From positions 87,058 to 151,057 of the forward strand of contig JAKLEX010000001.1 of the NCBI GenBank assembly GCA_022711495.1: DNA of 64,000 nt. The letters run 5' to 3'. The stretch comes from Patescibacteria group bacterium (lineage in GTDB: Bacteria > Patescibacteriota > Minisyncoccia > Phycocordibacterales > JAACPR01). A program made the position numbers and the translations under genes. Below the pieces are notes generated by a model that had not been told where the DNA came from, did no database searches, and saw only the letters and a program-made list of their open reading frames with translations. This document shows, one piece after another, positions 4,626 to 62,528 of the stretch. The first letter of the stretch is position 1; every line of letters starts with the position of its first letter.

Positions 4626-4782
4626 CAAAAAGTTGCTATTAATAATTGTTACGGATTGCTGCGAATCGCCGCGAGCAGACCCGGATACTTTATAAGGACA
4701 AACTGATTTTGTAAAATAGTGTCCGATATAAAACCTTGAAAATCAAGGCGATTTAAACGACTGGGGATAACTATGTGGATAT

Positions 4783-15154: not shown

Positions 15155-15163
15155 TTTATAAAT

Positions 15164-16384
15164 ATGGAAGTTGAATATAAATATCGGGCGATAAATGCTG
15201 ACAATGATTTAGTCACGGGCTTTAGAAGTGCTCCGGATGAAATATCTTTAAACCGGATTCTGCTCCAAGAGAGACTGAGACTTATTTCAGTTGAGCGCGT
15301 TTCTAGATTTCGCATTAAAAAACTCTTGGCTAAGTTGGGTGATTTCAGCCGAATTTCTGAACACGACAAAATAATTATGTACAGAAACCTTGGCTCAATG
15401 CTCAGCGCGGGATTGTCGTTGGCCAGAGCGATTTCTGTCATGTACCGCCAGACCACCAGTAAAGTTTTCCGAAAAATTCTTGGCAAGATTGATGAAAGCA
15501 TCAAGAAAGGTTCCAGTTTATCTGAAGCGTTCAGGCAATTTCCTCGGATTTTTAATCCGCTGGTTGTCTCCATGGTTAAGTCCGGCGAAGAAACTGGAAA
15601 CTTAGCCAAGTCTCTGCGCGTTACCGCCGAACAGATGGAGAAAACTTATCTGCTCAAGAAAAAAATACGCGGCGCGATGATTTATCCGGGCTTTATTATT
15701 CTGGCTATTTTTGTGGTTGGGATTTTTATGATGATTTATGTTGTTCCAGTTTTGACCGATACTTTTAACGAGCTGGAGATCGAGCTGCCAATGTCAACTC
15801 GGGCCATCATAAGTATCAGTGATTTCTTGCAAAATAATCTGTTGGGAGTCGCGGTGGGAATTTTGATTTTGGCCGCGCTGGTTATCTGGTTTTTGAGAAC
15901 TAAGTCTGGAAAGAGAGTCTTTGATTCCGCCCTGATTAAAGCCCCGGGCTTGTCTCCGATGATTAAGGAAATAAACTCCGCCAGGGTGGCCAGAGCCATG
16001 TCCTCGCTTCTTTCTGCCGGTGTGCCGGTGGTCAGGGCGTTAGAAATTTCTAAAGATATTGTCCAGAATTCTTACTACAAACAAGCTCTGGAAGGGGCGG
16101 CGAAAAATATTGGCGAGGGTCTTCTGATCTCCAAAATTTTTGCCGAAAATAAAGATCTTTTCCCGACTTTTGTTTCAGAGATGGTCTCGGTCGGGGAGGA
16201 AACTGGTGAACTCGGCGGGATGTTAAATGAGGTGGCGGTGTTTTATGAAGCAGAGGTTGATCAAAAAATAAAAAATATTTCCGCCATTATTGAACCAGCG
16301 CTGATGATTGTCGTTGGCGTGGCGGTCGGATTTTTTGCCCTGTCTATGATCGGTCCGATTTATAGTTTGTCCGAAGGCATATAA
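15164..16384 (+). CDS. pilC: Type IV pilus inner-membrane platform protein PilC (GspF family)
   Basis: Two repeated GspF domains, 3 TM segments, directly downstream of pilB. Confidence 0.8.
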   Translation: MEVEYKYRAINADNDLVTGFRSAPDEISLNRILLQERLRLISVERVSRFRIKKLLAKLGDFSRISEHDKIIMYRNLGSMLSAGLSLARAISVMYRQTTSKVFRKILGKIDESIKKGSSLSEAFRQFPRIFNPLVVSMVKSGEETGNLAKSLRVTAEQMEKTYLLKKKIRGAMIYPGFIILAIFVVGIFMMIYVVPVLTDTFNELEIELPMSTRAIISISDFLQNNLLGVAVGILILAALVIWFLRTKSGKRVFDSALIKAPGLSPMIKEINSARVARAMSSLLSAGVPVVRALEISKDIVQNSYYKQALEGAAKNIGEGLLISKIFAENKDLFPTFVSEMVSVGEETGELGGMLNEVAVFYEAEVDQKIKNISAIIEPALMIVVGVAVGFFALSMIGPIYSLSEGI

Positions 16385-28525: not shown

Positions 28526-31105
28526 ATGAATCTTAGAAAAATCTTGTCGTTAGTTTTTGTGCTGACGATGTTGCCGATGGCCGCCAGAGCGGACGATATG
28601 TCCGGCAGTCTAGAACTGACCGATTGTTTCTCCGACGGTCTATACAGATTTCAGAGCGTCCAAGTTAGCGCCGGACCAGAGAAAGCCGTCTATAATCCCG
28701 GCGAGTCCATAGAATTTGTTGGTAGCGTTATAAACGAAAATTTATACCCCGTTGTTGACGGTAATGTTTTTGTCAGAATAAGTAAGGTCAATGCCAATTC
28801 CGCGACAGTAGACACGGTTTGGCATGACGTCGTTGATGAGTTCATGGCGGTTTCTGACATCTCAATCAGCGATGCAGCAAGCCAACCAATCTCTTTCTCT
28901 TGGCAGGCGCCCGGCACAATTGGGGCGGGTGATTACCGAGCCGATTTCTTTTTCTCCGTTGATAAAAGATTTAACCTTGGAGGACTTCCTTTTACGAATG
29001 AGATCGTAATAGGAACATCTTATTTTGAAATTGCCGGCTCATCGGTCAGGCCGTTTGTCTTGGATAGAAATAGTACCAAGGTAAATGACCAAACATATCT
29101 ACATATTGGAGAGTGGCCAGATGTACCGGCTGATTCCGCGGTAGAAATTAGTCAGCCCCTAAAAAACTTGTCTAACAAAGAAATCTCTCTTGATGTTACT
29201 TATGATTTATATTATTGGGACTCTTTGAGAGATTCTGACAAATTAGATTCTCGTTCCGAAAAAGTTGTCGTTCCGGCAAATGGATCGGTTAATTTGTCGT
29301 ACACCATAGAAAAGGTCTCCGAGCCGGTGTACTATCTGAGAATTAAAGCGACAAATGCTGGACTCTCATCTATCGTTAACGTCAGAGTTGTCTCATCGCT
29401 TGTCGCCAAGTCCAGGATCAATTATCCCGCTCTCAATGTCTTTCCTCTCATAAAAGACCAAGAAGCTACGGCCTTCTCTTGCTTTCACATGACTTCATAT
29501 GCGACAGACACTGGCCGCATAGTTTTGACGGTTAGTGACGAGAACGATCGCGTTTTTTCTTCCGGAGAATACGCGGGAGAAATCAGTAGCCAAATGGACG
29601 CGGTTGCCATGAATTTCTCGCCAAACAAAAATATAAGCTTTGCGAAATTAAAAGCTGAGCTGTTTGATTCAAGCGGCAAGCTTGTTGATCAGTACGAAGC
29701 CGTTTATGATTGCGAAGAAATCGGTAGTGAAAGTTGCCGACAACTTGACCAAGAAACGGCGACAGCGGCCTTTAATTATCTGGAACTGATCTATGTTGTT
29801 CTGATAGTTTTGGTGCTTGTCTTGATATTTGTCCGCATAAGAAAAATCGACGCGAACTCTTGGTCAAGAAAGGCCTTATCTATTATCGCGATTATCTTGG
29901 TTCTAATTCTGGCTTATATTGTTGTAAGAGCGGTCGCGCTCAAAAGTGGCATATCAAGCGCCACGGCGGAAGTTGTCTCTGGCGATGGCCGAACAAAAAC
30001 CGAGACGAAGTCTACTCCTTATAAAGAAAAAGCCTTTACGGGAAACAGGTTGGTTGTTTACGGAAACTTAAATCTTACGCACACCGTGACACTGACCGGA
30101 GGCGATAGCCGAGACGACGGCGGCTTTGATTTGGACGATGGCGACTCCGTTGGAATAAATTGGAACCGAGGATGTAGTTTTACGGCAACTGGCGGCGCAT
30201 GGGATACGCCAGTCTGCGGATCTTCACAGACATTTCATTCCGGCGACCGGGGTCATGATGGTTGGATTAAATTCCTTAACGAATCACAGACAGCAACGAT
30301 AGTGTCCAGCAATCCGGAGGTCGTGTCATGTAGCGGCTCTAGTCCAAATTGGACGTGTACCGGTTTGGAGTCTGGTTATGCCGATATCAGTGTCCATATA
30401 GACCAAGATCTCTTCTATCCGGAAATGTGTGTTGAGTGGACGGCGCAAAATGGCACGGCGTGTGTCGAATGCACCTCTAATATTCAAGGTAAATATGAGA
30501 CGTGTAATGATCGTGGTTTGAATTTGACGGTTACAACTCCAAGCTATAATCCAACATGGCGTATATATGTTGGTAGTTCAGACGCATGCGGTCCGGCCGC
30601 CGGCGAGACTCTCTCTGATTCTGACTGGCCGCTAGATGAAGAAGATGCGTGTGCTTATGGCGAAATGGAAAATCCGGGCGATGATGGTGATACTTATTCT
30701 TGGAAATGCGGAGACGTTTCATGTTCGGCCAATAAAGATGATGGTGACGACGATGATCCAGAAGAACCTCCTTACGAACCGCATCATTTGTTATTAATCC
30801 CTGACGACGCGTCAGCCATATCGCCAAATATTGTTAACCCGGGCGAACAGTGTACTGTCAGTTGGGAAGTAGATAGTAGCCAAAACGGGTCCTGCACGAT
30901 TATAAATATCGCAGACCAAGTAGTCGGAAGCGCGTTTGACTATACTGCCGGCGGAGAAAATTCTTTTGAAGCGTTGGTGGATCCTCAAAATGAATATAGA
31001 ATCGTCTGCACCGACAGCGCACCAGCCGAGCCGGGAGGGGAACCGGAATCCGTTACTAGTACCGTTCTGCGCTGTATTTTGAATCCGAACGTTGTTGAGC
31101 AGTAA
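28526..31105 (+). CDS. Large predicted cell-surface protein (859 aa): signal peptide, N-terminal beta-rich domain, central two-helix TM hairpin, and a Cys/Asp-rich C-terminal domain
   Basis: Signal peptide MNLRKILSLVFVLTMLPMAARA; TM1 LELIYVVLIVLVLVLIFVRI and TM2 IIAIILVLILAYIVVRAVAL about 15 aa apart; C-terminal half has over 25 Cys, an acidic run DDGDDDDPEEP, and no recognisable enzyme motifs. Confidence 0.5.
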   Translation: MNLRKILSLVFVLTMLPMAARADDMSGSLELTDCFSDGLYRFQSVQVSAGPEKAVYNPGESIEFVGSVINENLYPVVDGNVFVRISKVNANSATVDTVWHDVVDEFMAVSDISISDAASQPISFSWQAPGTIGAGDYRADFFFSVDKRFNLGGLPFTNEIVIGTSYFEIAGSSVRPFVLDRNSTKVNDQTYLHIGEWPDVPADSAVEISQPLKNLSNKEISLDVTYDLYYWDSLRDSDKLDSRSEKVVVPANGSVNLSYTIEKVSEPVYYLRIKATNAGLSSIVNVRVVSSLVAKSRINYPALNVFPLIKDQEATAFSCFHMTSYATDTGRIVLTVSDENDRVFSSGEYAGEISSQMDAVAMNFSPNKNISFAKLKAELFDSSGKLVDQYEAVYDCEEIGSESCRQLDQETATAAFNYLELIYVVLIVLVLVLIFVRIRKIDANSWSRKALSIIAIILVLILAYIVVRAVALKSGISSATAEVVSGDGRTKTETKSTPYKEKAFTGNRLVVYGNLNLTHTVTLTGGDSRDDGGFDLDDGDSVGINWNRGCSFTATGGAWDTPVCGSSQTFHSGDRGHDGWIKFLNESQTATIVSSNPEVVSCSGSSPNWTCTGLESGYADISVHIDQDLFYPEMCVEWTAQNGTACVECTSNIQGKYETCNDRGLNLTVTTPSYNPTWRIYVGSSDACGPAAGETLSDSDWPLDEEDACAYGEMENPGDDGDTYSWKCGDVSCSANKDDGDDDDPEEPPYEPHHLLLIPDDASAISPNIVNPGEQCTVSWEVDSSQNGSCTIINIADQVVGSAFDYTAGGENSFEALVDPQNEYRIVCTDSAPAEPGGEPESVTSTVLRCILNPNVVEQ

Positions 31106-51065: not shown

Positions 51066-53822
51066 ATGGAAAGTTTTAATCTTGAGAAAAAAGTATCATC
51101 ACCGCGGGAAGAGCTTTCTTATTTGCGAGAAAAAATCGCGGGACGAGAGAGAGCTGGTCTTCAAGGCGAGCAAATTCCCGATCGAGAAGCTATTATCCGT
51201 GACGCGTTAGATGAATATTCAAAACAGAATCCGGAGCAAGTTTTTGACAAGAGCTCTGTTATTCCCGAGAAATTCAGGGAAGAGATCGTCTTACGTCTAA
51301 AGCCGGAAGAGCACGACGCCAAAATGTCCGAACTGATCTCTATTGTCTATGAGAAAGGAATTATAAATGCCCTTGATATCATTCAGAGATTAAGAGATCC
51401 GCACCTGACCGACGATTTCCACCGATTTCTCGTGCAATATTTGAAAGAAGGATATAAGGTGACCGGCCTAGAGACAAAGATGTCGCTAAACAAAGCTCTT
51501 AATCGTACATTGTTTGAAGTGTCGCTTGGCTATAGTCGTCAAAAAGAAGATTTTGACCTCAAAAAGTTTTTTGAATTGATGGAACAGTTCTATCTCGGCA
51601 TGTTATCTGTCGCCGATTCTGACGAGGAAGAGTATTTAACTATTGAAATCGCCAACGCCATCGGTAGTCGGGAGTTTATCTTTTATGTTTCTGTTCCGGA
51701 TCCCAAGATAGATTTGTTTGAAAAACAACTAATCTCTGTTTTTCCGGACGCGATGATCAGGGAACAAAAAGACGACTTTAATATTTTTAACGAGAAAGGC
51801 TCCTCCAAAGGAGTCTATCTGGATCAAGAAAAGGCTCCAGCCAGGACCATTAGGACGCATGACACTTTCGGCAGTGATCCGATGAAAGTTTTGCTCAACG
51901 TTTTTTCCAAATTAAAAGAAAAGGAAGAAGCCGCCGCGATTCAGATGATTTTCAAGCCGGTTGGAGATTTTTACTTGAAATATTATCGCAAGGCCTTATC
52001 AAAAGTTGAAAAAGGTGCCAAAGACGCCGAAGAGCTGCATATAAAAAATACCTGGAAGAGCGTTTGGGGTGCCAGAATCTCTAATTTTATAAGTCCCTCT
52101 CCATTTCAAAAAGATTCTCACAAAGACCCAACGCCGGTCAATGTCGATTCAATCTTGCTTGAGAACATCAAGAACAAAACCAGCTCTCCAATTGTCTCAA
52201 CCAACTTGAGGATAATTGTCTCAACCGGAACAGAACAGAGAACTTCCGCTGTCTTGAAAGATATTGAATCGGCCTTCAATCAATTTGAAAATACTAACGG
52301 TAATAAATTTAAATTTATTGAATTCAAATCCGGCAAAGAAAGGGAATTGTTCAAGGGCTTCTCTTTTCGGGAGTTCAATCGAGATTATGATTTGCCGTTG
52401 AACATCAAAGAATTGGCGACGGTGATTCATTTTCCATCAGAAGATGCCATAAGTTCTCCAGAGCTGAAGACCAACAAGATGAAAACCAGTTCCGCTCCTT
52501 TGACTATCCCGAAGGCCGGCATTTACCTTGGTAAAAACGTCCATAGAAATATGGAGACCGATATTTATTTCGCGCCCGAAGACAGAATGCGTCACTTTTA
52601 CGTCATTGGTCAGACCGGCACCGGTAAAACCAATCTCTTGAGGAGTATGATAATTCAAGATATTCAGAACGGTGAGGGCGTTTGCATGATTGATCCACAC
52701 GGATCAGATGTTCAAGATGTTCTAGCTAATATTCCGAAAGAGAGATACGGAGATGTTATCTATTTTGATCCGAGTTACACCGACCGGCCGATGGCATTGA
52801 ATATGCTGGAATATGACAGAAAAAAGCCGGAGCAGAAAACTTTCGTGGTCAATGAATTGTTTAGCATTTTCCAGAAATTGTACGGGTCAAATCCGGAAGC
52901 TTTCGGTCCGATGTTTGAACAATATTTTCGAAATGCCACGATGCTGGTTATCGACGACCCAGAAACCGGCTCAACTTTGTTGGATGTCTCTCGTGTTTTG
53001 TCAGACAAGAGTTTCCGCGAATTGAAGTTAAGCCGATGCAAGAATCCGGTCGTCATTCAGTTTTGGCGAGAAATCGCCTCTAAGGCCGGCGGCGAGGCTT
53101 CGTTGGAAAATATCGTGCCTTATATCACCAGCAAGTTTGATGTTTTCTTGGCCAATGAAATTATGCGACCGGTAATCGCCCAAGAAAAATCCAGTTTTAA
53201 TTTCCGCGAAATAATGGATCAGAAGAAGATTCTTTTGGTCAATCTCTCCAAGGGCAATCTCGGAGACACAAACTCTAATCTTATTGGGCTTATCTTGGTT
53301 GGGAAAATTTTGATGGCGGCCCTTTCCAGAGTTGATACTCCCGGAGAAAATTATTCGCCTTTCTATCTTTACATTGATGAGTTCCAAAACGTCACCACGA
53401 ATTCTATTGCCACGATCTTATCCGAAGCTAGAAAATATAAATTATCGCTGAATATTGCTCACCAGTTTATCGCTCAAATTGATGAAAAGATTCGAGATTC
53501 AGTTTTTGGCAACGTCGGCTCTATGGCCGTTTTCCGTGTCGGTTCTGATGACGCGGAGTTTCTGGAAAAACAGTTATCGCCCGTTTTCACGGCCAAAGAC
53601 ATCATGAACATAAATAATTTCAACGCCTATTTGAAAATGCTTTCTGCTGGTGTACCGATTGACGCTTTTAATATAAAAACAGAACCGCCACAGATTGGTA
53701 GTCGTAGCCAAATAGAGCCGTTAAAACAGATGTCCTATATAAAATACGGCCAGGACAGAGTCGTGGTGGAAAATCAGATCATAGAGAAATACAGAAAAGC
53801 TCCGCTGTCGCCCAGGATTTAG
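51066..53822 (+). CDS. Large P-loop NTPase of the VirB4/TraG(VirD4)/HerA-FtsK superfamily with a ~500-aa N-terminal domain of unknown function
   Basis: Walker A FYVIGQTGTGKTNLL, post-P-loop CMIDPHGSD, Walker B YLYIDEFQNV, and C-terminal ARKYKLSLNIAHQFIAQI (the RK...ATQ-type motif of type IV secretion ATPases); no N-terminal TM. Confidence 0.55.
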   Translation: MESFNLEKKVSSPREELSYLREKIAGRERAGLQGEQIPDREAIIRDALDEYSKQNPEQVFDKSSVIPEKFREEIVLRLKPEEHDAKMSELISIVYEKGIINALDIIQRLRDPHLTDDFHRFLVQYLKEGYKVTGLETKMSLNKALNRTLFEVSLGYSRQKEDFDLKKFFELMEQFYLGMLSVADSDEEEYLTIEIANAIGSREFIFYVSVPDPKIDLFEKQLISVFPDAMIREQKDDFNIFNEKGSSKGVYLDQEKAPARTIRTHDTFGSDPMKVLLNVFSKLKEKEEAAAIQMIFKPVGDFYLKYYRKALSKVEKGAKDAEELHIKNTWKSVWGARISNFISPSPFQKDSHKDPTPVNVDSILLENIKNKTSSPIVSTNLRIIVSTGTEQRTSAVLKDIESAFNQFENTNGNKFKFIEFKSGKERELFKGFSFREFNRDYDLPLNIKELATVIHFPSEDAISSPELKTNKMKTSSAPLTIPKAGIYLGKNVHRNMETDIYFAPEDRMRHFYVIGQTGTGKTNLLRSMIIQDIQNGEGVCMIDPHGSDVQDVLANIPKERYGDVIYFDPSYTDRPMALNMLEYDRKKPEQKTFVVNELFSIFQKLYGSNPEAFGPMFEQYFRNATMLVIDDPETGSTLLDVSRVLSDKSFRELKLSRCKNPVVIQFWREIASKAGGEASLENIVPYITSKFDVFLANEIMRPVIAQEKSSFNFREIMDQKKILLVNLSKGNLGDTNSNLIGLILVGKILMAALSRVDTPGENYSPFYLYIDEFQNVTTNSIATILSEARKYKLSLNIAHQFIAQIDEKIRDSVFGNVGSMAVFRVGSDDAEFLEKQLSPVFTAKDIMNINNFNAYLKMLSAGVPIDAFNIKTEPPQIGSRSQIEPLKQMSYIKYGQDRVVVENQIIEKYRKAPLSPRI

Positions 53823-53857
53823 GAGGTAATTGTTTTGATATCGGTTATAATATCGTT

Positions 53858-54844
53858 ATGCGCAGAACACTTATTGCATTTTTTGTAATCGCACTTATTT
53901 TTCCAGTTTCAGCTCTGGCTTCGCAGAATATCTTTTATTATTTTGATAATGCTTACGGGTTAAATAGCTTGAAGAAGAATTATAAAAAAATTGATGTCGT
54001 GGCTCCACAGATATATGAAGTTGGCTACGATCTGGAGGTCTCTAAACCGAAGTCAAAGAAAATTCTTAAAGAAGCCGACAAGAAAAACGTTTCCGTCATG
54101 CCCCTCATTGTTAATGATGACTTTAGCAAGGTGTTGATGTCCGACATTTTGATAAATAATAAGGCGCAAGATAAAATTATTGATTTCATGATCAAAGAAG
54201 CCGAAAAATATGACTATATCGGTTGGCAATTTGATTTTGAAAATATCAATCACTTAGATCGCGACTTGTACACGGCTTTTGTTAAAAAAACTTATCCGCG
54301 GCTGAAAGAGGAAGGACTCCAATTCAGCGTGGCCGTCGTTGTTCGTTCCACGGACTACAATATCAATGATAAAAACCAAGATTGGAGCGGTGCGTACGAT
54401 TACAAAGAACTTTCCAAGAACTCTGACTTTCTGTCGCTGATGACTTATGATGATCCAAATTCAATCGGACCGGTAGCTTCTTTGCCTTATGTGAACAGAA
54501 TCTTGGATTACATGCTAACCCAGGCGCCGGCGGAAAAACTTTCGTTGGGAATTCCGTTTTATTGTTGGCAATGGCAGAATGGAGTCCGAGCTGGAGCGAC
54601 GACTTACAAATTAGCCCAAAAGAATTATAAAAAGGGCAAAAACCGAGATAGAGATTTTGATCCGGTTTTAGGTGCCGAGAAGTTTGAATTCACCAAGGGG
54701 CGAGCGGATTTTGTTATCTGGTGCGACAATGACGAGAGCTTGGAAATTAAGGAGGAAATCATCAAAAATAAGGGCTTGGCCGGTTTTTCAGCTTGGGCTC
54801 TCGGCCAGGAGGATCCGGCCATCTGGAGATATTTGGGGAAATAA
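53858..54844 (+). CDS. Secreted glycoside hydrolase family 18-like protein (chitinase or peptidoglycan-hydrolase-like)
   Basis: Signal peptide; GH18 motifs YIGWQFDFE (degenerate DxxDxDxE with the D-x-E retained), LSLMTYDD (MxYD), SLGIPFY (GxPxYG). Confidence 0.6.
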   Translation: MRRTLIAFFVIALIFPVSALASQNIFYYFDNAYGLNSLKKNYKKIDVVAPQIYEVGYDLEVSKPKSKKILKEADKKNVSVMPLIVNDDFSKVLMSDILINNKAQDKIIDFMIKEAEKYDYIGWQFDFENINHLDRDLYTAFVKKTYPRLKEEGLQFSVAVVVRSTDYNINDKNQDWSGAYDYKELSKNSDFLSLMTYDDPNSIGPVASLPYVNRILDYMLTQAPAEKLSLGIPFYCWQWQNGVRAGATTYKLAQKNYKKGKNRDRDFDPVLGAEKFEFTKGRADFVIWCDNDESLEIKEEIIKNKGLAGFSAWALGQEDPAIWRYLGK

Positions 54845-54881: not shown

Positions 54882-55058
54882 ATGTCTTTAGATTTTCAAA
54901 AAGGAGATTTTTATCAAAATACACAAAGTTCGGGCGAAGAATTGGGATTTGTGACTAGAATGTTTATAAAATTAGGCGTTGCCAAAGATCAGAGGTCAGC
55001 CAACGTCGCCATGTTAGTTTTCGTTGCCATCTGTTTCGCGCTGATATTGATTTTTTAG
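54882..55058 (+). CDS. Hypothetical tail-anchored small membrane protein (58 aa; below the ORF-track cutoff)
   Basis: Manual translation: MSLDFQKGDFYQNTQSSGEELGFVTRMFIKLGVAKDQRSANVAMLVFVAICFALILIF. Confidence 0.2.
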   Translation: MSLDFQKGDFYQNTQSSGEELGFVTRMFIKLGVAKDQRSANVAMLVFVAICFALILIF

Positions 55059-55108: not shown

Positions 55109-55426
55109 ATGAATTTTGAACTTGAGGATAGCAGACAGAATTTTATTAACCCAAACGCCGCTGACCAGGAAGAGAAAGGCTTTTCTCTGGCCAGTTTTTT
55201 GGTCAAGAAAAAGATTGTAAGCGATTACCGCAAAGCCAATATCTTGTTATTGTCGGTGTCGGTAATAATTATCGTGATTTCTGTTTTAATGGCCTATTTT
55301 GTTTTGCGGCCAGAAAAAGTAGTAAATTATGAAGATCTGCCCTTGAGCGAAAAGATGAAGATTTCGCCCGAACTCAGAGAGACTCTTGATAGAATACAAT
55401 TAGATAATCAAAAATATGGAAACTAA
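55109..55426 (+). CDS. Hypothetical single-pass membrane protein (105 aa)
   Basis: TM ILLLSVSVIIIVISVLMAYFVL; 3' end overlaps the pilin gene start by 11 nt. Confidence 0.3.
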   Translation: MNFELEDSRQNFINPNAADQEEKGFSLASFLVKKKIVSDYRKANILLLSVSVIIIVISVLMAYFVLRPEKVVNYEDLPLSEKMKISPELRETLDRIQLDNQKYGN

Positions 55427-56015
55427 AAAAATAAGAGGTTTTACTTTAATAGAGTTGTTAGTAGTTATCGCCATTATCGCTTTACTATCCAGTATCGTTT
55501 TGACTTCGCTTCAGGATGCCAGACTTAAAGCCCAGGACTCAAAGGTCATCCAGCAGGTTAGAGAATTCCAAAACGCCGTAGCGATTTTTATGGTGGACAA
55601 CAATCATTATCCCAACACGGGACGAGATGTGGGCACAAAGGTTTGCATCGGCCCAGAAAGCGTAGACTGTTATTTTCAGAATGTACACATAGAAACTCGA
55701 CCGGAATCTGATGATTTTACCAGTTTGCTTCCGAAAAGATATTGGGTCGGGGAATGGCTTGTGCCGACAGCTAACGCAGCGAGCATGAGTTCTTATATTG
55801 CCTATAACTTTATAAATGTTCCTTATGTCTACACGGCCGAAGGCAAAACCGGCGGGGGCATTATTTATGAATGTACGGACGAAGATGATACGGGTGATTG
55901 TTCTTCTGCAGTAGTGTATTGGGCCACAGCAAAACCAGTTCAGAAGGGGACCCTTATGGAGGGAACTGAGGGCGTATATTACCAAGACGCCGGCGATCCT
56001 GGATCTGGCTACTAA
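55416..56015 (+). CDS. Type IV pilin-like (prepilin N-terminal methylation/cleavage motif) protein
   Basis: Class III signal: METKKIRG|FTLIELLVVIAIIALLSSIV; 199 aa. Confidence 0.7.
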   Translation: METKKIRGFTLIELLVVIAIIALLSSIVLTSLQDARLKAQDSKVIQQVREFQNAVAIFMVDNNHYPNTGRDVGTKVCIGPESVDCYFQNVHIETRPESDDFTSLLPKRYWVGEWLVPTANAASMSSYIAYNFINVPYVYTAEGKTGGGIIYECTDEDDTGDCSSAVVYWATAKPVQKGTLMEGTEGVYYQDAGDPGSGY

Positions 56016-56032
56016 TAAATCTCTTTAAATAT

Positions 56033-58480
56033 TCATTTGTCGTCTGTTGGCACGAGAGTTTTTCCTCTTTGATATCTGGCATCAAAGAGCAGGAAAATTA
56101 ACGACAGGCACAGCCCAATCAACGAGATGATGTGTCCTACCACTACAGGTTTTGGCGTCTCAAAATAAATTATTATCGCCCGCTCTGCAAAAATCAAATC
56201 TTGTCCCGGCCCAGCCAGATAGATTTTTTCTCCGCCAACCGATTTCCAGCCCGGAAAATAGCTCTGCTTTATCAAAATTGGAACCGCCGCGGTTTTTTCT
56301 GCCGACTCGATATCTAAATCTGCGCTCAAAACATTTTCGGAAAAGCCAATACGCGCACTTAATTTTTCTGGTCTTCTATCCTCAACAAAATCGTCCAGCA
56401 GTTTTACAAAAGTATCGTATTGTTTCTCAAAATTCTCCGCCCACAAGTCGTTTAGTAAAAAGATCCCGCCAGTGTCGGAGGCCCCAAAGACAAACTCATA
56501 TAATTTATCGTCTGATGGCAGAGCGATAATTTTGCCACCACTTGCCAGATATTCTTTTAGGGCAGAAATGGCCCCATCCGCGTTTTCATAACTGTAGGAA
56601 TCTATCAATATGTATTTAAATTTTTTAAGATCTTCACTTTTGTCCAGGAGTTTTTCATCGGCATAGACAAAAGTAAAATCTGTTCTGGCTCGTTTTAAAT
56701 TAATTTCTTCTACCAGAGAAATAAAGTCAAACCGGCGTTGCGGAATTTCCTTGGTATTTAAATCGGAAAAGACCAAAATAGGTTCTTTTTCTGGCAAACC
56801 TACCGTCTGTGGCTCCATCAGTATTCTATAGATAGCCCAGTCATCAAAATCTTTTTCTTTTATGGCAAGGCCGGAATCTTCAACCAAATCTTTTTGATCT
56901 CGTGATCTTAATATCAAATATTTAATTCCGTAAAAGTTGGCGACCTTTATTTGGTCCTCGACGGGGTTATCCAGATATTCTTGGTCAAAAGCTAAGTCGC
57001 ATTTTATACCCCAACATTCTGGCCAATACGACAGGGAATTTCGTATCGGAACCCAAAATAGGGAACTTAGCGCGGATTCTCTGATTACGCTGTAAGCTGT
57101 TTTATTGCCTTGGATACCCAAGTAGGCATCCACAACCCCCGTGGAGGGTTTTTCATATGGAGTGTACCACTCAACTAATGCCAACCCATCTTTGTCTTTC
57201 ATATAATCAAGTATGGGCTGTATGCTTTCAGTGACGTTATCTATGTAGATACCACGTAAATCGTCATGAAAGGCCCCATTTATTTTCGTTGCATAGATTG
57301 AGTAGCTAGTGATGATCAAGATTAATAAACAATATACCGTTTTGATTTTGATAAATCGCCGAATTGTTACAAAAGTGAAAACCGCCAGTATCGGCAAGAA
57401 AAAATAAATTGTTCCGATCCATCTATCTATGTGTATTGGCAGTGATGGCAACCAAATATAAGCTTTAGTAACTAGAAACAAATTCGCCACAATCATTAAA
57501 AACCCTAGAGCTTTTATTAAATTATTCTTTTTGATGAAAGAGAATACCAGTGAAATTATTACGAAAACCGGAAAATAATAATGGTAATAATAAAGCCCTG
57601 ACAATGATCCCCACTTCCAACCAAGCGGCCGGCCGGCGAAATAATCGTAATAGTGAAGCATCGGCAGATACCAGAAAGAAGCGATCAGGACCGGGATAAA
57701 ACCGGAGAGGAAATACAGACAGATAAATTGCACCAGCGATCTGGCGCCGTTTACATTTTTTCTTCTGTCAATCAGACGAAGAATAAATATCAGACCGAAG
57801 ATAAAAAAGGCGATAATCGCTATGTGGACATTGGTTAACAAAATCAGAAACTGAAATGCGCCGGCGTAATACTTGTTGGCCGGTTTTTTCTCAACGTCGA
57901 GAAAAAAGATCAACCAAAAAACCAAAAACACAAAAGCCAAAGATTGGGTGACCAGACCATTGTTAAGCGAACTAGCCAAGGAAACTCCCACATAGCCCAA
58001 TTCCGATTTCGCTGAAATTAATCCGGCGGACAAAACCAAAACCCAAAAAGATTGGAACTTTGATTTGCTGATTTGCGAGTGATACAAAGCGGATAGGCCC
58101 ACCGGAATTAATGTTGCCGTCAATAGTGGGATGGTCTTAAACACGGCATCAAACTCTATGGCCGATATTTTATAAATTACAGCGCACAGATAATAAAAAA
58201 CCGGCGGATAAAATTGTGGAAAGGGCATGCCGTTATACCAATTTGGTATCCAGCCCCAGAATGTCGGAAAAATATTTTCGGCGTAAAGTTTGGCGATAGC
58301 GTAATGTCCGGAACCATCCCAGCCACCAACAAATTGATTGGTTAAATAAGTCCGAATCAGGTCTTTATTAAGTGTGTACAATAAAATGGCCGAAACTGCT
58401 GTCAGAAAAACAAAAAAGGCAAAATCACTGGTGATTATTTTTACGAAAATCCTGTTAATTTTTTTGAAACACACTGCCAT
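56033..58480 (-). CDS. Large polytopic membrane protein, putative GT-C-fold glycosyltransferase (YfhO/ArnT/PMT-like)
   Basis: About 14 N-terminal TM helices with aromatic-rich first loops (GWDGSGHY...FWGWIPNWYNGMPFPQFYPP), a ~350-aa extracytoplasmic domain, and a final C-terminal TM; adjacent to the GtrA-GT2 gene. Confidence 0.45.
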   Translation of the reverse strand: MAVCFKKINRIFVKIITSDFAFFVFLTAVSAILLYTLNKDLIRTYLTNQFVGGWDGSGHYAIAKLYAENIFPTFWGWIPNWYNGMPFPQFYPPVFYYLCAVIYKISAIEFDAVFKTIPLLTATLIPVGLSALYHSQISKSKFQSFWVLVLSAGLISAKSELGYVGVSLASSLNNGLVTQSLAFVFLVFWLIFFLDVEKKPANKYYAGAFQFLILLTNVHIAIIAFFIFGLIFILRLIDRRKNVNGARSLVQFICLYFLSGFIPVLIASFWYLPMLHYYDYFAGRPLGWKWGSLSGLYYYHYYFPVFVIISLVFSFIKKNNLIKALGFLMIVANLFLVTKAYIWLPSLPIHIDRWIGTIYFFLPILAVFTFVTIRRFIKIKTVYCLLILIITSYSIYATKINGAFHDDLRGIYIDNVTESIQPILDYMKDKDGLALVEWYTPYEKPSTGVVDAYLGIQGNKTAYSVIRESALSSLFWVPIRNSLSYWPECWGIKCDLAFDQEYLDNPVEDQIKVANFYGIKYLILRSRDQKDLVEDSGLAIKEKDFDDWAIYRILMEPQTVGLPEKEPILVFSDLNTKEIPQRRFDFISLVEEINLKRARTDFTFVYADEKLLDKSEDLKKFKYILIDSYSYENADGAISALKEYLASGGKIIALPSDDKLYEFVFGASDTGGIFLLNDLWAENFEKQYDTFVKLLDDFVEDRRPEKLSARIGFSENVLSADLDIESAEKTAAVPILIKQSYFPGWKSVGGEKIYLAGPGQDLIFAERAIIIYFETPKPVVVGHIISLIGLCLSLIFLLFDARYQRGKTLVPTDDK

Positions 58481-58499
58481 GCTTGGTGTCCTGTCGTGC

Positions 58500-59624
58500 C
58501 TAATATTTGCCAGTAAGGAAATTATATTGGATTAAGAGAAAATCTCCCAGAGTTAGCAAAGTATCGCGAATCGGCCGAAATCGTGATTCTTTTCTGTCAA
58601 TCCAACGGATTGGCACTTCCAGTATTTTTAATTCATAATGCTGGGCTAAAGCGAGCAGCTCAAGGTCAAAACCATAGCCGGTGATCTTTTGTCTCCGGAC
58701 GATTTGTTCAACAACTTCCCGTTTTATCAATTTGAAGCCGCATTGGGTGTCTTTGATGTCTTTGATTAAAGCCGTGCTTAAAAACGAACCAATCTTGCTG
58801 ATAAGCCGGCGATAAGAAGCGCGCTTAGTTTCAATAACGCTTCCAAGCAACTTTCTGGAGCCAACCACGACATCATATTCAGGAATGTATTTTTGCAATT
58901 TTGTTAATTCTTCAATTGGAGTTGAATTGTCGGCATCTGCGAAGAGAACATATTTTCCGTCGCTGGATAGGGCCCCGATTTTCAAAGCATTTCCTTTGCC
59001 AGTATTTCTATCCAAGACGATCAATTTTAAATCCGGCGAATTATTTTGGCCTTTCTTTATAATTTCCGTCGTTTGGTCTGAAGAGCCATCATCAACGACG
59101 ATAATTTCATAAGAAAGTTTTGATTTTAGGAAAAAGTTTCTGATTTCAGAGAGGGTTTTTTCAATAACCGATTCCTCGTTATATGTCGGGATGACGACGG
59201 AATACTCAAAGTGATAACTTTTGTCCAGAATCGCCTCTTTTATGACCGGGCGGAATGTCCACTGTCGGTTCCCCAGATAATTCCATAACAGTACGATTAG
59301 GGAAGTCAGGGCCTTGGCCAGTAAGTACCAGATGCCCAGTATTATGTTTAACAAAAACATCAGCAAAATCGTTAATAGAAGCCCGACTACCGAGACCAAA
59401 AAGAATTTCAAATATTGCTGGTGATAGGCTTTGTTTCTGTTTTTGAACGTCCATTTTTTATTTAAAACAAAGTTACTGGTTGCGGCGGCGACGAAAGAGA
59501 CGGCGGCGGCTGACAAAACATGCCACTGCAAAAACTCTACTAGCACAAACAAGAGAGACAAATCTAAAACGGTACCAGACATTCCGACAATTGAGTATCT
59601 AATCATCTTTTTGATCTCTTGCAT
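58500..59624 (-). CDS. GtrA-like flippase domain fused to a family-2 glycosyltransferase (polyprenyl-phosphate sugar synthase, DPM1/GtrB/CsbB-like)
   Basis: N-terminal 4-TM GtrA-like region (YSIVGMSGTVLDLSLLFVL...NFVLNKKWTF...GNRQWTF); GT2 motifs YSVVIPTYNEE, VVDDGSSD, and a downstream QxxRW-like RRQKITGYGFD. Confidence 0.7.
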   Translation of the reverse strand: MQEIKKMIRYSIVGMSGTVLDLSLLFVLVEFLQWHVLSAAAVSFVAAATSNFVLNKKWTFKNRNKAYHQQYLKFFLVSVVGLLLTILLMFLLNIILGIWYLLAKALTSLIVLLWNYLGNRQWTFRPVIKEAILDKSYHFEYSVVIPTYNEESVIEKTLSEIRNFFLKSKLSYEIIVVDDGSSDQTTEIIKKGQNNSPDLKLIVLDRNTGKGNALKIGALSSDGKYVLFADADNSTPIEELTKLQKYIPEYDVVVGSRKLLGSVIETKRASYRRLISKIGSFLSTALIKDIKDTQCGFKLIKREVVEQIVRRQKITGYGFDLELLALAQHYELKILEVPIRWIDRKESRFRPIRDTLLTLGDFLLIQYNFLTGKY

Positions 59625-59644
59625 TTGCTAAATAATAGCACCTT

Positions 59645-59693
59645 TGGGTCTTTTTAAAATTAAAAACACCCCCGCGTTCCTTTGGCGGGGGTG
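59645..59693 (-). terminator. Intrinsic terminator for ORF 59709-59984
   Basis: CACCCCCGC-GTTCCTTTG-GCGGGGGTG; on the minus strand it is followed by TTTTTAATTTTAAAAAG. Confidence 0.55.
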
Positions 59694-59708
59694 GTTATGG
59701 TTTTGTCG

Positions 59709-59984
59709 TTATATATGGAATTCCGGCTGGGCCAGCTCTCTCGGCGGGGTCGCTGGATCAGGGACTTCAACTTCTCGGAAATACTGTTCGCGTCTCTTTG
59801 CCCAATATTCAGCGCCTCCATGTTTGAGATAATGTTCAACGAGCCATTCGGGATGCCGGTGGAGCTCACAGTCGTCGCACCAACCATGCGCTTCTCTGGT
59901 GGCCCAGCGATTTAACTGGCTAAGAAACATATCCACGAGCTGATCATAAATATATTGTCTGAGATCAAAGATTATCTTCCTCAT
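59709..59984 (-). CDS. Hypothetical protein (91 aa), GC-rich
   Basis: GGAGGTG SD 5 nt upstream of the ATG; own terminator; HGWCDDCELHRHPEW segment; no family recognised. Confidence 0.35.
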   Translation of the reverse strand: MRKIIFDLRQYIYDQLVDMFLSQLNRWATREAHGWCDDCELHRHPEWLVEHYLKHGGAEYWAKRREQYFREVEVPDPATPPRELAQPEFHI

Positions 59985-60213
59985 CAGTCACCTCCGACTC
60001 TGATTTTGCGGTCTAGATCGTTCATACCTCAATTTAAATCAAGAAAAGAACTCTACCAGTAGAAGATTATATAAAAGATATTAAAGAATACAAAGTTATC
60101 CACACACCACTAGTATTGCGTGATGAGACATTTGATTGTCGACAAGACTTTGATATCATAAAGCGCATAGAAAGCGACTCGGTTGCTTTATCAAATAAAC
60201 ACAGATTTAACTT

Positions 60214-61137
60214 ATGCGCTTTAATTTATTCTGCCGTCACAAAGCTTGTTCCCAATCTGGTTTCACCCTCCTGGAGATGCTTTTGGTGATTGCCATTATC
60301 GCTATTTTGGCCGCCATCGTTATCGTGGCAATCAACCCGGCGCGGCAATTGGCCCAAGCTAGAAACGCCCAAAGAGCTAGTGATATTAATGCTATATATA
60401 AAGCCGTCCAGCAATATTACCTGGACGAACTAGATTGGCCGGATGGTGACCTGGACGGCTCTTTACAAGAAATCTGCGATACCGGCGGCGATACCGAAAT
60501 CCCGAATTGTTTGGATCTTTCGGCTGAACTGGTACCGACTTATTTGTCTGCGCTACCAATTAATCCGGGAGGAGAAAATTATGAAATTGCTTTGCAAACT
60601 AGCAATAAACTAGCACTAATTGCTCCGGGCTCTACTGAAGAGGGTTTGGGCGGCGTGGCCATTGGCACCTCAACATCGCTGCTCGGAGGAGGCGAAGATG
60701 TGCCTTGTTCTGAACAAGAAGGAGATGCTCGTCGATACTGTGATTTGGAAGATATAAACGACGCCATTGTTGCCTACATCGCCGCCAACGAACACGCGCC
60801 ATATTTGGATTGTGGTGATATCACAGAACCAGACAAATTCTGCCAGGCCTGCGAGACGGAAGGATGTGTTGATTGGGACACGTTAGCAGCAGAATTGGCA
60901 GAATATATAGATCCTTTGCCGACAGACCCTTGCGGTGATGCTTGTTATGTAGAAGAGCCGCGAACTTTCTATACTTATGCCTATGTCGCCCCATCTTGTC
61001 TGGCATTTTGGTACTCAGAAAACCCAGAAGCTTGCAGTGAAGAAGAGGGCTGCTACTCTAATGAAGCCTATGGGCTACACGCAGATACTTGGGATGATGA
61101 AGGGGAAAGTATAAGTTATGGTTTCGGCTCTTTCTGA
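60214..61137 (+). CDS. Type IV pilin-like protein with a Cys-rich, acidic C-terminal domain
   Basis: Prepilin leader MRFNLFCRHKACSQSG|FTLLEMLLVIAIIAILAAIVIVAI; C-terminal domain with about 12 Cys. Confidence 0.65.
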   Translation: MRFNLFCRHKACSQSGFTLLEMLLVIAIIAILAAIVIVAINPARQLAQARNAQRASDINAIYKAVQQYYLDELDWPDGDLDGSLQEICDTGGDTEIPNCLDLSAELVPTYLSALPINPGGENYEIALQTSNKLALIAPGSTEEGLGGVAIGTSTSLLGGGEDVPCSEQEGDARRYCDLEDINDAIVAYIAANEHAPYLDCGDITEPDKFCQACETEGCVDWDTLAAELAEYIDPLPTDPCGDACYVEEPRTFYTYAYVAPSCLAFWYSENPEACSEEEGCYSNEAYGLHADTWDDEGESISYGFGSF

Positions 61138-61160
61138 TTCCATAGGCCAGGAAACTTTTT

Positions 61161-62528
61161 ATGTATTATCTTCTGTTGATATCTCACGCCCTTCTGAATA
61201 ATTTTGCTGGAGGACGCAGTAACAGTAAAGTCTATTTGTTTTTTATATTTTTAATCGTTTTGATTTTTTTGGCCGTTTTTGTAAATAGGTCCAACAAAAA
61301 AGTAGAGAAGATAAGTAAATATTTATTATTTTTGTCGTTGGTAATTGGTTTTGTGCTTGGCGCGGCGGCTTTTCTTAGTTTCGCTGGTGATTTTGGATTT
61401 GAGTGGAACGATTTTGTTTTGACTTTCAATAATGGGGAAATATCTAGTTCGCAATTAACTCACAATCATATCTTGAAAGGGTCTCTGGCCGTGGTTGGGG
61501 GCCCGCTTGGCTATAATTACTTTGAAAACATGGACATGGGGACGCCGTTTGTCGGACTTATTCCGAATTGGATTTTGTGGCTGGGGCTGATGTGCGTCGC
61601 TGTTGCCACAATTTCCGCTTTGCTATTTTTTGCCACCACCGTCTCTCAAAAAGAAACCCCCGCCCGTAAAATTTTATACACCGCGGCGTTTTCTTTAGTG
61701 GTTTTTTCCTTGATTAAATCCATACCGGACGGCGGCGTTTTTCTCTCAAATACGCTGCCGATGGTCGCCGCCTTTTTGTATGGCATTTATCGTGGCAAAA
61801 AGGGGATAGTCGCTTGTTCCGGCGTCATAGTCGTTTATTTCATCTGGACAGCTTTTGCTTGGAATCGGATTTTCTTCCACGAGTGGTATCAACTGAAAAT
61901 ATATCTGCTGTCTGGGCTGATTTCTTTCGTCGCCATTGGCGTCCTATTCTTTTTGGAGAAACACATGACCAATGGTCGGAGAGCTGTTCTGGCCGGCGCT
62001 TTTGCTGTTTTGCTGGTAACTTTTTATCCAACGTATCAAGAGCTAATGGGGACGATGAAATATCTCAATACAAACGCAATCAATGGAATGGTCGCTCTGT
62101 ATGATGAGCCGGACGAACTATTCTGGGAAAAGAAGTCATCTCTCGGGAATCTCAATTTTTATGAAATTCAAAGCGGAATTTCCATCGGCGAGATAGTTCG
62201 CAAATATGATTTGCTTGATAATATTTATCCGGTCGCCGTGCCTTGGAAGACTTGCGTTCCGGTTGATTTGAGGGGTGATGAATACGCTTTTTCTATTAAC
62301 ACTCCAGCTGGAAACGCGGCCGATTTGGAAAATTTGAAAGCCGCTCTAGATCGGCAACTCAATAAAGCGGATATAAAATTTGTTGAAGAGAAAAACGGTA
62401 TTGTCATTTATAGCGCCGCCCTTAACATTAAGCCTTGCTTGCCACGCCACCTGAATGTAATTGAAGAATTTTTGAAAACAAAATTTAAAGAGCCGTTTTT
62501 CGTCTATAACATAGAGAAAACCAAATGA
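61161..62528 (+). CDS. Hypothetical polytopic membrane protein with a C-terminal soluble domain (455 aa)
   Basis: About 9 predicted TM helices, then a ~130-aa hydrophilic tail; its stop overlaps the next gene by 4 nt. Confidence 0.4.
   Translation: MYYLLLISHALLNNFAGGRSNSKVYLFFIFLIVLIFLAVFVNRSNKKVEKISKYLLFLSLVIGFVLGAAAFLSFAGDFGFEWNDFVLTFNNGEISSSQLTHNHILKGSLAVVGGPLGYNYFENMDMGTPFVGLIPNWILWLGLMCVAVATISALLFFATTVSQKETPARKILYTAAFSLVVFSLIKSIPDGGVFLSNTLPMVAAFLYGIYRGKKGIVACSGVIVVYFIWTAFAWNRIFFHEWYQLKIYLLSGLISFVAIGVLFFLEKHMTNGRRAVLAGAFAVLLVTFYPTYQELMGTMKYLNTNAINGMVALYDEPDELFWEKKSSLGNLNFYEIQSGISIGEIVRKYDLLDNIYPVAVPWKTCVPVDLRGDEYAFSINTPAGNAADLENLKAALDRQLNKADIKFVEEKNGIVIYSAALNIKPCLPRHLNVIEEFLKTKFKEPFFVYNIEKTK

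Follow-up and report, generated by a model that had tools for sequence, protein, structure and literature searches.

A GT-C-fold membrane protein family of Patescibacteria encoded beside a small membrane protein and a type IV pilin, a candidate pilin glycosylation module

The transfer of single, lipid-carried sugars to proteins by membrane-embedded GT-C enzymes has been described in several bacteria. In Pseudomonas aeruginosa, TfpW (PilA-TfpW-TfpX, together with PsPA7_6245-6251) belongs to a system that arabinosylates group IV pilins. Its gene lies directly beside the pilin gene, the enzyme carries an acidic motif in periplasmic loop 1, the polyprenyl-phosphate monosaccharide donor is made in the cytoplasm, a GtrA-like component (6247) and a small accessory protein take part, and the sugar is O-linked to Ser/Thr (10.1101/2020.04.19.049825). 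In the streptococcal GtrB/PgtC2 and PgfS/PgfM1 systems, a GtrB-type GT2 charges Und-P with a sugar, and on the outer side of the membrane a YfhO-type GT-C attaches single sugars to Ser/Thr-rich, disordered C-terminal regions; the Pgf cluster of S. mutans also encodes the substrate adhesins (PMC12041528). A membrane GT-A/GT2 enzyme, a GtrA-type protein and a GT-C likewise make up CsbB/GtcA/YfhO, GtlA/GtcA/GtlB and the phage GtrABC systems, with the GT2 and GT-C genes adjacent; in Firmicutes, teichoic acids are the substrate of YfhO-type relatives (PMC8035078). Pilins are O-glycosylated by yet another route, that of PglL/TfpO (PilO), in which tfpO adjoins pilA and the C-terminal Ser of the pilin is the target (10.1101/2020.04.19.049825).

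We find a locus with a predicted enzymology like that of these systems in an ultrasmall, monoderm-like Paceibacterota (CPR) bacterium. The window, the whole stretch of 64,000 nucleotides that was analysed, encodes the following features at this locus:

55109..55426, + strand: small protein with one TM helix, 105 aa, first gene in the pilin operon (from the ORF list)
55416..56015, + strand: pilin A, a type IV prepilin, 199 aa (PF07963 and TIGR02532)
56033..58480, - strand: predicted GT-C-fold membrane glycosyltransferase, 815 aa (fold comparison and hhalign)
58500..59624, - strand: GtrA-like TM domain fused to a GT2 domain, 374 aa (PF04138 and PF00535)
60214..61137, + strand: pilin B, a prepilin, 307 aa (PF07963 and TIGR02532)
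61161..62528, + strand: polytopic membrane protein, partner of pilin B, 455 aa

The first four genes form a cassette. Pilin A and the GT-C gene stand tail-to-tail, their stop codons 17 nt apart, and the stop of the 105-aa ORF overlaps the start of pilin A by 11 nt. The GtrA-GT2 gene is the likely operon partner of the GT-C gene, because it lies 19 nt upstream on the same strand. A scan for promoters and terminators gave counts no better than shuffles. An earlier, sequence-only reading had placed both pilins, the 815-aa protein and the GtrA-GT2 fusion exactly where we find them, and had described a three-part glycosylation module; the three predicted parts are carried by two polypeptides, as GtrA is fused to GT2. 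It had passed over the 105-aa ORF, a part of the module that is itself conserved.

Fold comparison and alignment show the GT-C fold, the motif position and the topology of the 815-aa protein. As anticipated, it is polytopic, with about 11 TM helices and a C-terminal TM anchor, and has a large extracytoplasmic domain, which is acidic and spans 378 aa (residues 401-778); the protein contains a flavodoxin-like plus beta-rich domain. Loop 1, which like the 378-aa domain is placed outside by helix count and the positive-inside rule, carries GGWD55GSGH and GMPFPQFYPP, and a conserved arginine, R353, lies in a later outside loop. D55 follows TM1; it is invariant in the 17 sequences of alignment A1 and at least 90% conserved in the 48 diverse sequences of alignment A2. 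By hhalign, the protein aligns with a PF10131 protein over 433 columns (probability 98.1%, E 1e-13) and with a protein carrying both PF10131 and PF09586 (probability 97.2%, E 3e-11). D55 falls on the loop-1 Asp of these annotated proteins (WDFGAH/QDDLQA), FYPP on their FYPP/FYAP and R353 on an Arg. The model has the multi-TM GT-C fold, and the conserved loop-1 acidic residue expected of the superfamily is present as D55, a candidate for the catalytic Asp/Glu that the sequence-only reading had proposed looking for.

The same reading had called the protein YfhO/GT-C-like. The GT-C fold and a remote homology to YfhO and PF10131 proteins stand, and membership of the Pfam YfhO family falls. The 815-aa protein has no Pfam match, PF10131, PF09586, PMT and PMT_2 included. 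None of 48 family members matches PF09586 at E <= 0.1, and we reject YfhO membership. Membership of PF10131 is rejected as well, with just 3 of 48 diverse members matching (best E 3e-06); the family is sister to PF10131, or remotely related to it. PDB sequence searches with profiles A1 and A2 returned nothing relevant; the GT-C relationship was revealed by fold comparison and hhalign only. The family comprises about 2,300 representative sequence clusters, has no Pfam or NCBIfam model and is seemingly confined to CPR/Patescibacteria; a second homologous-protein search, with A2 and restricted by its word index, added just three distant matches. PIG-U and GAB1 are non-catalytic subunits with a GT-C fold. 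By analogy, the 815-aa protein could be a scaffold or chaperone that handles the pilin while the GT2 serves another pathway, a reading to which we give very little credence.

The 374-aa protein had been read as a GtrA-GT2 fusion, and both halves match: PF04138 (GtrA_DPMS_TM) at residues 9-124 (E 7e-28, 97.5 bits, cut-off 26.1) and PF00535 at residues 142-308(+) (E 6e-33), that is, a GT2 catalytic domain fused to a 4-helix TM domain. The best solved relatives of the GT2 are DPMS 5mlz (7e-28), GtrB 5ekp (4e-15) and ArnC (1e-12), and its top NCBIfam matches are PgfS (first), ArnC, dolichyl-P hexose transferase, AglJ and PpgS, all of them below the equivalog cut-offs. In agreement with the earlier reading, the domain is closest to polyprenyl-phosphate sugar synthases of the DPMS/GtrB/CsbB/ArnC type. 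The PF04138 family also includes the membrane anchor of DPMS, and a GtrA-like flippase role is putative. Since the 815-aa GT-C is operonic with such a GT2, and a polyprenyl synthase is encoded close to homologs at L001 and L010, we infer from context that its donor would be a sugar linked to lipid phosphate. Taken together, that the module is a glycosylation system of the polyprenyl-P-sugar/GT-C kind seems to us highly probable.

How does it differ from the systems already described? As far as descriptions allow comparison, TfpW has 646 aa and a C-terminal periplasmic TPR, whereas the window enzyme has 815 aa, no TPR, a flavodoxin-like plus beta-rich domain and a C-terminal TM anchor. The tfpW gene follows pilA in the same orientation, whereas the GT-C gene here is convergent with the pilin gene. 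The TfpW donor route runs through DPPR synthase, DprE1 and DprE2 (D-Araf), none of which showed up in a scan of 30 window ORFs, and that of the window through a DPMS/GtrB-like GT2; the one host is a proteobacterium, the other a monoderm-like CPR bacterium. The streptococcal acceptors are membrane proteins and sortase-anchored adhesins, the candidate acceptor here a pilin; the streptococcal GT-Cs carry the Pfam YfhO domain that this family does not match, and their systems lack the fused GtrA and the conserved small-ORF partner of the window module. CsbB/GtcA/YfhO, GtlA/GtcA/GtlB and GtrABC have a separate GtrA and no pilin linkage, and act on LTA, WTA or O-antigen. PglL/TfpO enzymes are of Wzy_C type and use preassembled Und-PP-oligosaccharides, whereas the window enzyme has a GT-C fold and Wzy_C matches neither the module proteins nor the 455-aa protein. 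In actinobacterial and eukaryotic protein O-mannosylation by Ppm1/PMT, the acceptors are Sec-translocating proteins generally; the 815-aa protein has neither a PMT/PMT_2 match nor a MIR domain. The earlier reading had proposed a lipid-monosaccharide/GT-C pilin route distinct from PglL/TfpO. Such a route has precedents: TfpW, streptococcal GtrB/PgtC2 and Pgf already exhibit protein O-glycosylation of this kind.

The new result is the synteny of the GT-C with the small ORF and the pilin. Related loci were searched with the A1 alignment of the GT-C. Of 30 distinct GT-C homologs, 28 are assessable (24-56% identity). At 19 of the 28, a small single-TM ORF and a prepilin gene converge on the 3' end of the GT-C gene; at 15 loci the genes abut (-37 to +65 nt), and in three of the 19 the GT2 is within the pilin operon, in the order small ORF, pilin, (GtrA), GT2. 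The pair is kept down to 24-27% GT-C identity and is the most constant GT-C neighbour across the range of 24-45%. By chance alone, a prepilin would be expected within 3.5 kb at a rate of 0.10-0.26 per locus, which corresponds to a binomial P of 4e-6 to 4e-13, a value that overstates independence because the loci are phylogenetically related. The sequence-only reading had proposed asking whether these genes stay beside pilins in related genomes or travel with something else, such as teichoic-acid genes, and the neighbourhoods favour the pilin. A metagenome scan with the globular domain of the pilin, meant to show whether its subfamily is always accompanied by the GT-C, found a single locus, L030, which carries the full module; here, and at L005, L006/L014 and L011, a GtrA-GT2 fusion likewise lies upstream of the GT-C.

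The linkage has exceptions. Nine of the 28 homologs have no adjacent pilin, among them the closest relatives (L001, L010 and L013, 53-56% identity), at which a GT2 followed by the GT-C lies near a polyprenyl synthase in place of the pilin. An adjacent GT2 is absent from about half of the loci, and at L007-L009 the trio is embedded in polysaccharide-type clusters (Bac_transf, GT4, epimerase, FtsW/RodA). It is conceivable, and in our judgement unlikely, that the GT2/GT-C pair decorates a non-protein surface polymer or lipid (a teichoic-acid-like polymer, a glycolipid or a secondary polysaccharide of the cell wall) in the manner of CsbB/YfhO and GtrABC, and that pilin adjacency reflects a shared envelope neighbourhood. 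Against it stand the specific small-ORF and pilin pair at 19 of 28 loci, usually abutting the GT-C stop, and the GT2 inside the pilin operon at three; Pfam and NCBIfam reveal no adjacent teichoic-acid genes in the window, and YfhO-type enzymes glycosylate proteins too (PMC12041528).

Both prepilins carry the class III signal peptides that had been read from the sequence, with G at -1, Glu at +5 in a hydrophobic N-terminal helix, and PF07963 and TIGR02532 above cut-off for each, and they are the sole matches to a prepilin signal regex among the ORFs of the window. Pilin A begins with METKKIRG|FTLIELL (KKIRG|FTLIE; PF07963 34.5 bits, E 1.3e-08, cut-off 21.2), has 4 Cys and ends in ...YYQDAGDPGSGY. 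Its orthologs adjoin the GT-C in other genomes and have the motifs QQVRxFQNAVA, CxGPxxxxCY, GGGxIYxC and YxQxAxDPGxG in common. The pilin-like protein could instead serve as a pseudopilin in an apparatus that secretes polysaccharide, comparable to cyanobacterial Hps pseudopilins, with the glycosyltransferases building the secreted polymer. In favour of this are the polysaccharide genes at some loci and weak NCBIfam matches, below threshold, to HpsB/HpsC pseudopilins (E 0.007-0.009). These matches, far below cut-offs, cover the generic N-terminal helix only, the window module has no Wzx/Wzy or ABC exporter, and GT-Cs that draw on lipid-linked monosaccharides typically modify an existing acceptor and do not build up a secreted polysaccharide. 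We therefore regard a pseudopilin role as scarcely credible.

The 105-aa protein, which has no match in Pfam or NCBIfam, shows a conserved acidic N-terminal motif (F-E-E/L-E-D), then GFSLxxFLVKK and a TM helix; at 19 loci a homolog (HMM E 1e-34 to 4e-05) immediately precedes the pilin gene that adjoins the GT-C.

The flanking pilin B had been proposed, like pilin A, as a substrate of the module. The partnership is conserved for pilin A and not for pilin B (...SQSG|FTLLEML; PF07963 31.1 bits, E 1.5e-07, cut-off 21.2; tail ...ISYGFGSF). An ortholog of pilin B is followed at L031 by a homolog of the 455-aa protein, at a syntenic site with neither GT2 nor GT-C, and the pairing recurs at L018. It is a neighbour of the glycosyltransferase module that forms its own conserved unit with the 455-aa protein, and we reject it as a module member. 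The model of the 455-aa protein has no informative fold match and no recognisable GT-C.

The tails of the pilins next to the GT-C are enriched in Gly and Ser, with a mean fraction of 0.44 in the last 20 residues vs 0.25 in other prepilins of the same loci (P = 0.018), a statistically modest difference; examples are GSGSGSGS, SSSESSS and DPGSGY, the last being the short tail of pilin A itself. Non-adjacent pilins may also have Ser-rich tails, such as one of 235 aa at L009. Such tails agree with a general system that O-glycosylates many extracytoplasmic, Gly/Ser-rich disordered proteins, of which a pilin would be one substrate, perhaps an abundant one, with no dedicated pairing. So do the nine GT-C homologs unlinked to pilins, the two paralogs in some genomes (L018, L024) and the streptococcal GtrB/PgtC2 precedent, whose targets are numerous proteins with tails rich in Ser/Thr (PMC12041528). 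That the GT-C abuts one pilin subfamily and its small ORF so tightly, and in a conserved orientation, suggests a dedicated relation, and we think a general system rather improbable. Gene clustering and breadth of substrate are nonetheless compatible, because the Pgf cluster of S. mutans encodes its own substrates.

Given the conserved synteny and the composition of the tails, we lean slightly towards pilin A as the dedicated or main acceptor of the module; the synteny supports this without proving it. The reading is weakened by the nine homologs that lack an adjacent pilin, the roughly half of the loci that lack an adjacent GT2, the polysaccharide clusters of L007-L009 and the short tail of pilin A. 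If pilin A is the acceptor, the GT2 domain would, by homology to DPMS, GtrB and ArnC, load polyprenyl phosphate with a single sugar, taken from a nucleotide sugar, at the cytoplasmic face. The lipid-linked sugar would then reach the outer face; the GtrA-like domain may aid its crossing or may merely anchor the synthase, like the homologous TM domain of archaeal DPMS. Outside, the 815-aa GT-C, with Asp55 and Arg353, would transfer the sugar to Ser (or Thr/Tyr) of pilin A, probably in its flexible Gly/Ser-rich C-terminal tail, at a stage when the N-terminal helix still holds the prepilin or pilin in the membrane. A conserved accessory role, perhaps that of presenting the pilin to the enzyme, may fall to the 105-aa single-TM protein, which would be translated together with pilin A. 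The glycosylated pilin would be assembled by PilB and PilC, which are encoded, as already noted from sequence, at 13415-16384 of the window (pilB T2SSE E 1.6e-122, pilC T2SSF E 4e-58); a prepilin peptidase was not noticed among the window ORFs scanned, in an unsystematic search. TfpW, GtrB/PgtC2 and PgfS/PgfM1 make such a mechanism feasible. A stronger reading, that the GT-C family is a dedicated pilin O-glycosyltransferase which, with a family-specific small single-TM adaptor, puts monosaccharides from a polyprenyl-P donor onto the Gly/Ser-rich C-terminal tail of one pilin subfamily, we hold tentatively, at somewhat short of an even chance.

What we describe is a mechanism of known type in a new enzyme family, with a new acceptor pairing and in a poorly understood phylum. 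A protein family that lacks a Pfam or NCBIfam model thereby gains a fold and a probable activity. Type IV pili are central to host attachment by CPR/Patescibacteria. The pili of Saccharibacteria have been the subject of one detailed study, in which pilin glycosylation is predicted only and the glycosylation machinery of the group is called unexplored (PMC11623550). The locus is the best candidate yet for how CPR bacteria glycosylate their pili, and a concrete, testable one, as the four-gene cassette could be moved to a heterologous host. If the family is indeed a dedicated pilin O-glycosyltransferase, pilus glycosylation would be widespread and genetically hard-wired in these ultrasmall episymbionts, and would be likely to help them recognise hosts or evade phages.

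We find that the pilin-linked gene set in the window very probably follows the enzymatic logic of glycosylation by a lipid-linked sugar and a GT-C transferase. A sequence-only reading had proposed two pilins flanking a GtrABC/CsbB-YfhO-like module, with the pilins as a possible substrate; the observation is confirmed, the enzymatic logic well supported and the interpretation as a whole partly so. All ORFs that it named are found in place, including pilB/pilC and the GtrA-GT2 fusion, and a small ORF that it overlooked and the 455-aa neighbour of pilin B are added:

13415-16384: pilB (T2SSE, E 1.6e-122) and pilC (T2SSF)
55109-55426 (+): small single-TM ORF, 105 aa, its stop overlapping the pilin A start
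55416-56015 (+): pilin A, 199 aa, METKKIRG/FTLIELL
56033-58480 (-): 815-aa protein
58500-59624 (-): 374-aa protein; GtrA_DPMS_TM PF04138, residues 9-124 (E 7e-28), and GT2 PF00535, residues 142-308 (E 6e-33)
60214-61137 (+): pilin B, 307 aa, ...SQSG/FTLLEML
61161-62528 (+): 455-aa polytopic membrane protein

Both pilins pass the Pfam N_methyl and TIGR02532 cut-offs, in agreement with the class III signals claimed for them, and are the sole two ORFs in the 64-kb window matching a prepilin-signal regular expression. Just 5' of the small ORF, a 58-aa ORF (54882-55058, +) has a weak match to the small-ORF HMM (E 6e-04) and may be a degenerate duplicate. The 589-bp region from which GtrA-GT2 and pilin B diverge (59625-60213) is unusually long by the standards of compact CPR genomes; an Rfam scan gave no family at gathering threshold and a promoter scan no convincing signal. 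Elsewhere, an 859-aa ORF (28526-31105, +), flanked by an EF-G gene and a downstream EF-Tu gene, is without Pfam match.

Structural modelling identifies the 815-aa protein as a GT-C glycosyltransferase of a family without annotation. An identical sequence is on record for Candidatus Paceibacterota (CPR/Patescibacteria), the group to which the window's genome belongs. The protein has no match in Pfam or NCBIfam, and its family profiles found nothing among PDB sequences. A word-indexed search gave only 17 relatives; with an exhaustive HMM search the family grows to 2,330 representative clusters (E <= 1e-3), 370 of them within E <= 1e-30. AlphaFold2, run on the family alignment, gives a confident model (pLDDT 84.5, pTM 0.87), whose top 14 Foldseek matches are all GT-C (probability 1.00). 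The protein has about 11 TM helices, an acidic extracytoplasmic domain of 378 aa (401-778) that combines a flavodoxin/ThuA-like and a beta-rich part, and a final TM anchor. Helix count and K/R distribution place the N-terminus on the cytoplasmic side and loop 1 outside, the latter carrying the motifs GGWD55GSGH and GMPFPQFYPP. As the fold assignment would have it, loop 1 holds a conserved acidic residue: D55 is invariant in the 17-sequence alignment and at least 90% conserved across 48 diverse sequences, and R353 is invariant in both. Two family members, P0035 (1546 aa) and P0042 (1549 aa), are about twice normal length with 2-3 matched stretches; each could consist of two GT-C units fused in tandem, or of gene calls run together.

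The protein had been labelled YfhO/GT-C-like. Membership of the YfhO family is ruled out by Pfam, as none of 48 family members matches PF09586; three match PF10131 (PTPS_related) and one DUF6541. Profile searches from the family reach three distant proteins whose annotation is PF10131, alone or together with PF09586 and PMT_2, and hhalign aligns it with two of them at probabilities of 98.1% (E 1e-13, 433 columns) and 97.2% (E 3e-11, 306 columns), setting WD55GSGH opposite WDFGAH and QDDLQA, FYPP opposite FYPP and FYAP, and R353 opposite a conserved Arg. The label is therefore right only at the superfamily level.

The GtrA-GT2 gene lies 19 nt 5' of the GT-C gene on the same strand. Its closest solved relatives, P. 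furiosus DPMS 5mlz (E 7e-28), Synechocystis GtrB 5ekp (4e-15) and ArnC (1e-12), are polyprenyl-phosphate sugar synthases; the top NCBIfam matches (PgfS, ArnC, dolichyl-P hexose transferase, AglJ, PpgS), all below equivalog cut-offs, agree with a putative role of this kind. The GtrA-like domain is a possible flippase, or could be only a membrane anchor, because PF04138 also covers the DPMS TM domain.

Is the pilin linkage conserved? We mapped prepilin signals and HMMs of the small ORF, GT2 and GtrA around 30 distinct GT-C homologs from metagenome and genome contigs (at most 90% identical to each other, 24-56% to the window protein). Among the 28 assessable, with at least 1.5 kb downstream of GT-C, a small single-TM ORF and prepilin converge on the GT-C 3' end in 19. 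The stop codons of GT-C and pilin are -37 to +65 nt apart in 15 loci, and one of the 19 has a 1.1 kb gap. If 0.10-0.26 prepilins are expected per 3.5 kb, 19 of 28 gives P = 4e-6 to 4e-13, values inflated by kinship of the loci. The complete window order, with small ORF and pilin on one strand and GtrA-GT2 then GT-C converging on them from the other, recurs in L005, L006/L014, L011 and L030, and three of the 19 loci (L015, L017, L027) have the order small ORF, pilin, (GtrA), GT2 as an operon, placing the lipid-sugar synthase within the pilin transcript. The small ORF and pilin are the most constant neighbours of GT-C, given that no more than about half the loci have GT2 beside it. The small ORFs are homologous from locus to locus, and nearly all their HMM matches within loci adjoin a GT-C-linked pilin; in the nearer loci these pilins share orthologous globular domains with QQVRxFQNAVA, CxGP...CY, GGGxIYxC and YxQxAxDPGxG. 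In some genomes two GT-C paralogs lie a few kb apart (L018 4626-10244, L024 378-10289); those of L018 flank a small-ORF and pilin pair, the second with its own GtrA and GT2.

Given this linkage, pilin A is the best-supported acceptor, a hypothesis we favour by a little. In the adjacent pilins the C-terminus tends to be a Gly/Ser-rich disordered tail (GSGSGSGS, SGSGDGSGSEGSGS, SSSESSS, GGSGDGSGDGGY; DPGSGY in the window), with a Gly+Ser fraction over the last 20 residues of 0.44 against 0.25 in other prepilins of the same loci (P = 0.018), a suggestive, not strong, acceptor-like signal. Such tails are the sort of sequence O-glycosylated in streptococci, where GtrB with the YfhO-type PgtC2, and PgfS with PgfM1, modify disordered C-terminal regions rich in Ser/Thr on the outer side of the membrane, and the Pgf cluster encodes its own substrates (PMC12041528). 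A glycopolymer is a possible acceptor too, since L007-L009 have genes of polysaccharide type (Bac_transf, GT4, epimerase, FtsW/RodA) around the trio. Nine homologs have no adjacent pilin, including the window protein's three closest relatives (53-56% identity), in which GT2 precedes GT-C near a polyprenyl synthase. In this pilin-unlinked clade a polyprenyl diphosphate synthase gene (PF00348) lies just 3' of GT-C (L001 11752-12819, L010 7756-8820), in agreement with a lipid-carrier-dependent function.

Pilin B is outside the module. L031, from the same MAG as the pilin-less closest-relative locus L013, retains the window synteny without GT genes: VirD4-like, GH18, pilin, small ORF, pilin, pilin B ortholog, 455-aa homolog, CarS-like and VTT. 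Pilin B and the 455-aa protein (window 60214-62528, L031 4061-6356, L018 72-1876) therefore form a conserved pair of their own, apart from the GT module, and the 'pilins on both sides' are half coincidence, pilin A alone being GT-C-linked. This gene arrangement in one MAG suggests that the GT pair can also function unlinked to a pilin. The 455-aa protein is ruled out as a second GT-C: modelled with confidence (pLDDT 84.8), it resembles generic helix bundles only. Many polar residues invariant in its family (R19, S20, K23, D84, N90, E93, H101, H103, K106, E122, D125...) suggest an enzyme or transporter. Directly 3', overlapping its stop, is a CarS-like membrane protein gene (CDP-archaeol synthase-like, PF01864; NF003114 E 1e-23, below cut-off) in a bacterial genome (62525-63034, +), kept in L031 (6356-6865). 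Pilin B-type proteins end in GFGS(F/I/W) (window 61114-61137; L031 ORFs 2019-2558, 2799-3305, 4061-4972) and pilin A-type pilins in G-S/G-x-Y, which points to a putative shared recognition or processing signal at the C-terminus. Directly 5' of the pilin cluster, a VirD4/TraD-like coupling ATPase (918 aa in the window; PF02534, DUF87, TraG-D_C; DUF8128 in homologs) is followed by a secreted GH18 in three genomes (window 51066-54844, L005 4237-8041, L031 1-2043).

A GtrABC-like pilin route distinct from PglL/TfpO had been proposed; the distinction is correct, and its mechanistic novelty is reduced because the TfpW, PgtC2 and Pgf systems precede it. In P. aeruginosa, O-arabinosylation of group IV pilins is the work of TfpW, a GT-C with a loop-1 DDX motif encoded beside pilA, as the 815-aa protein is beside pilin A, using polyprenyl-P-Araf made in the cytoplasm, with the GtrA-like PsPA7_6247 and the small accessory protein TfpX (bioRxiv 10.1101/2020.04.19.049825); the donor route is GT2-based here whereas TfpW relies on a DprE route. 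The multi-component GT-A/GtrA/GT-C scheme is reviewed for teichoic acids (PMC8035078). Pilin glycosylation in CPR has been predicted only, without a proposed enzyme (PMC11623550), and our literature search found no earlier description of such a CPR pilin-linked GT-C module. What is new is a GT-C family that lacks annotation and has an extracytoplasmic domain of its own, its convergent arrangement with a single pilin subfamily plus a small TM protein, a GT2-based donor pathway for a pilin-linked GT-C, and a CPR host for candidate pilin glycosylation enzymes.
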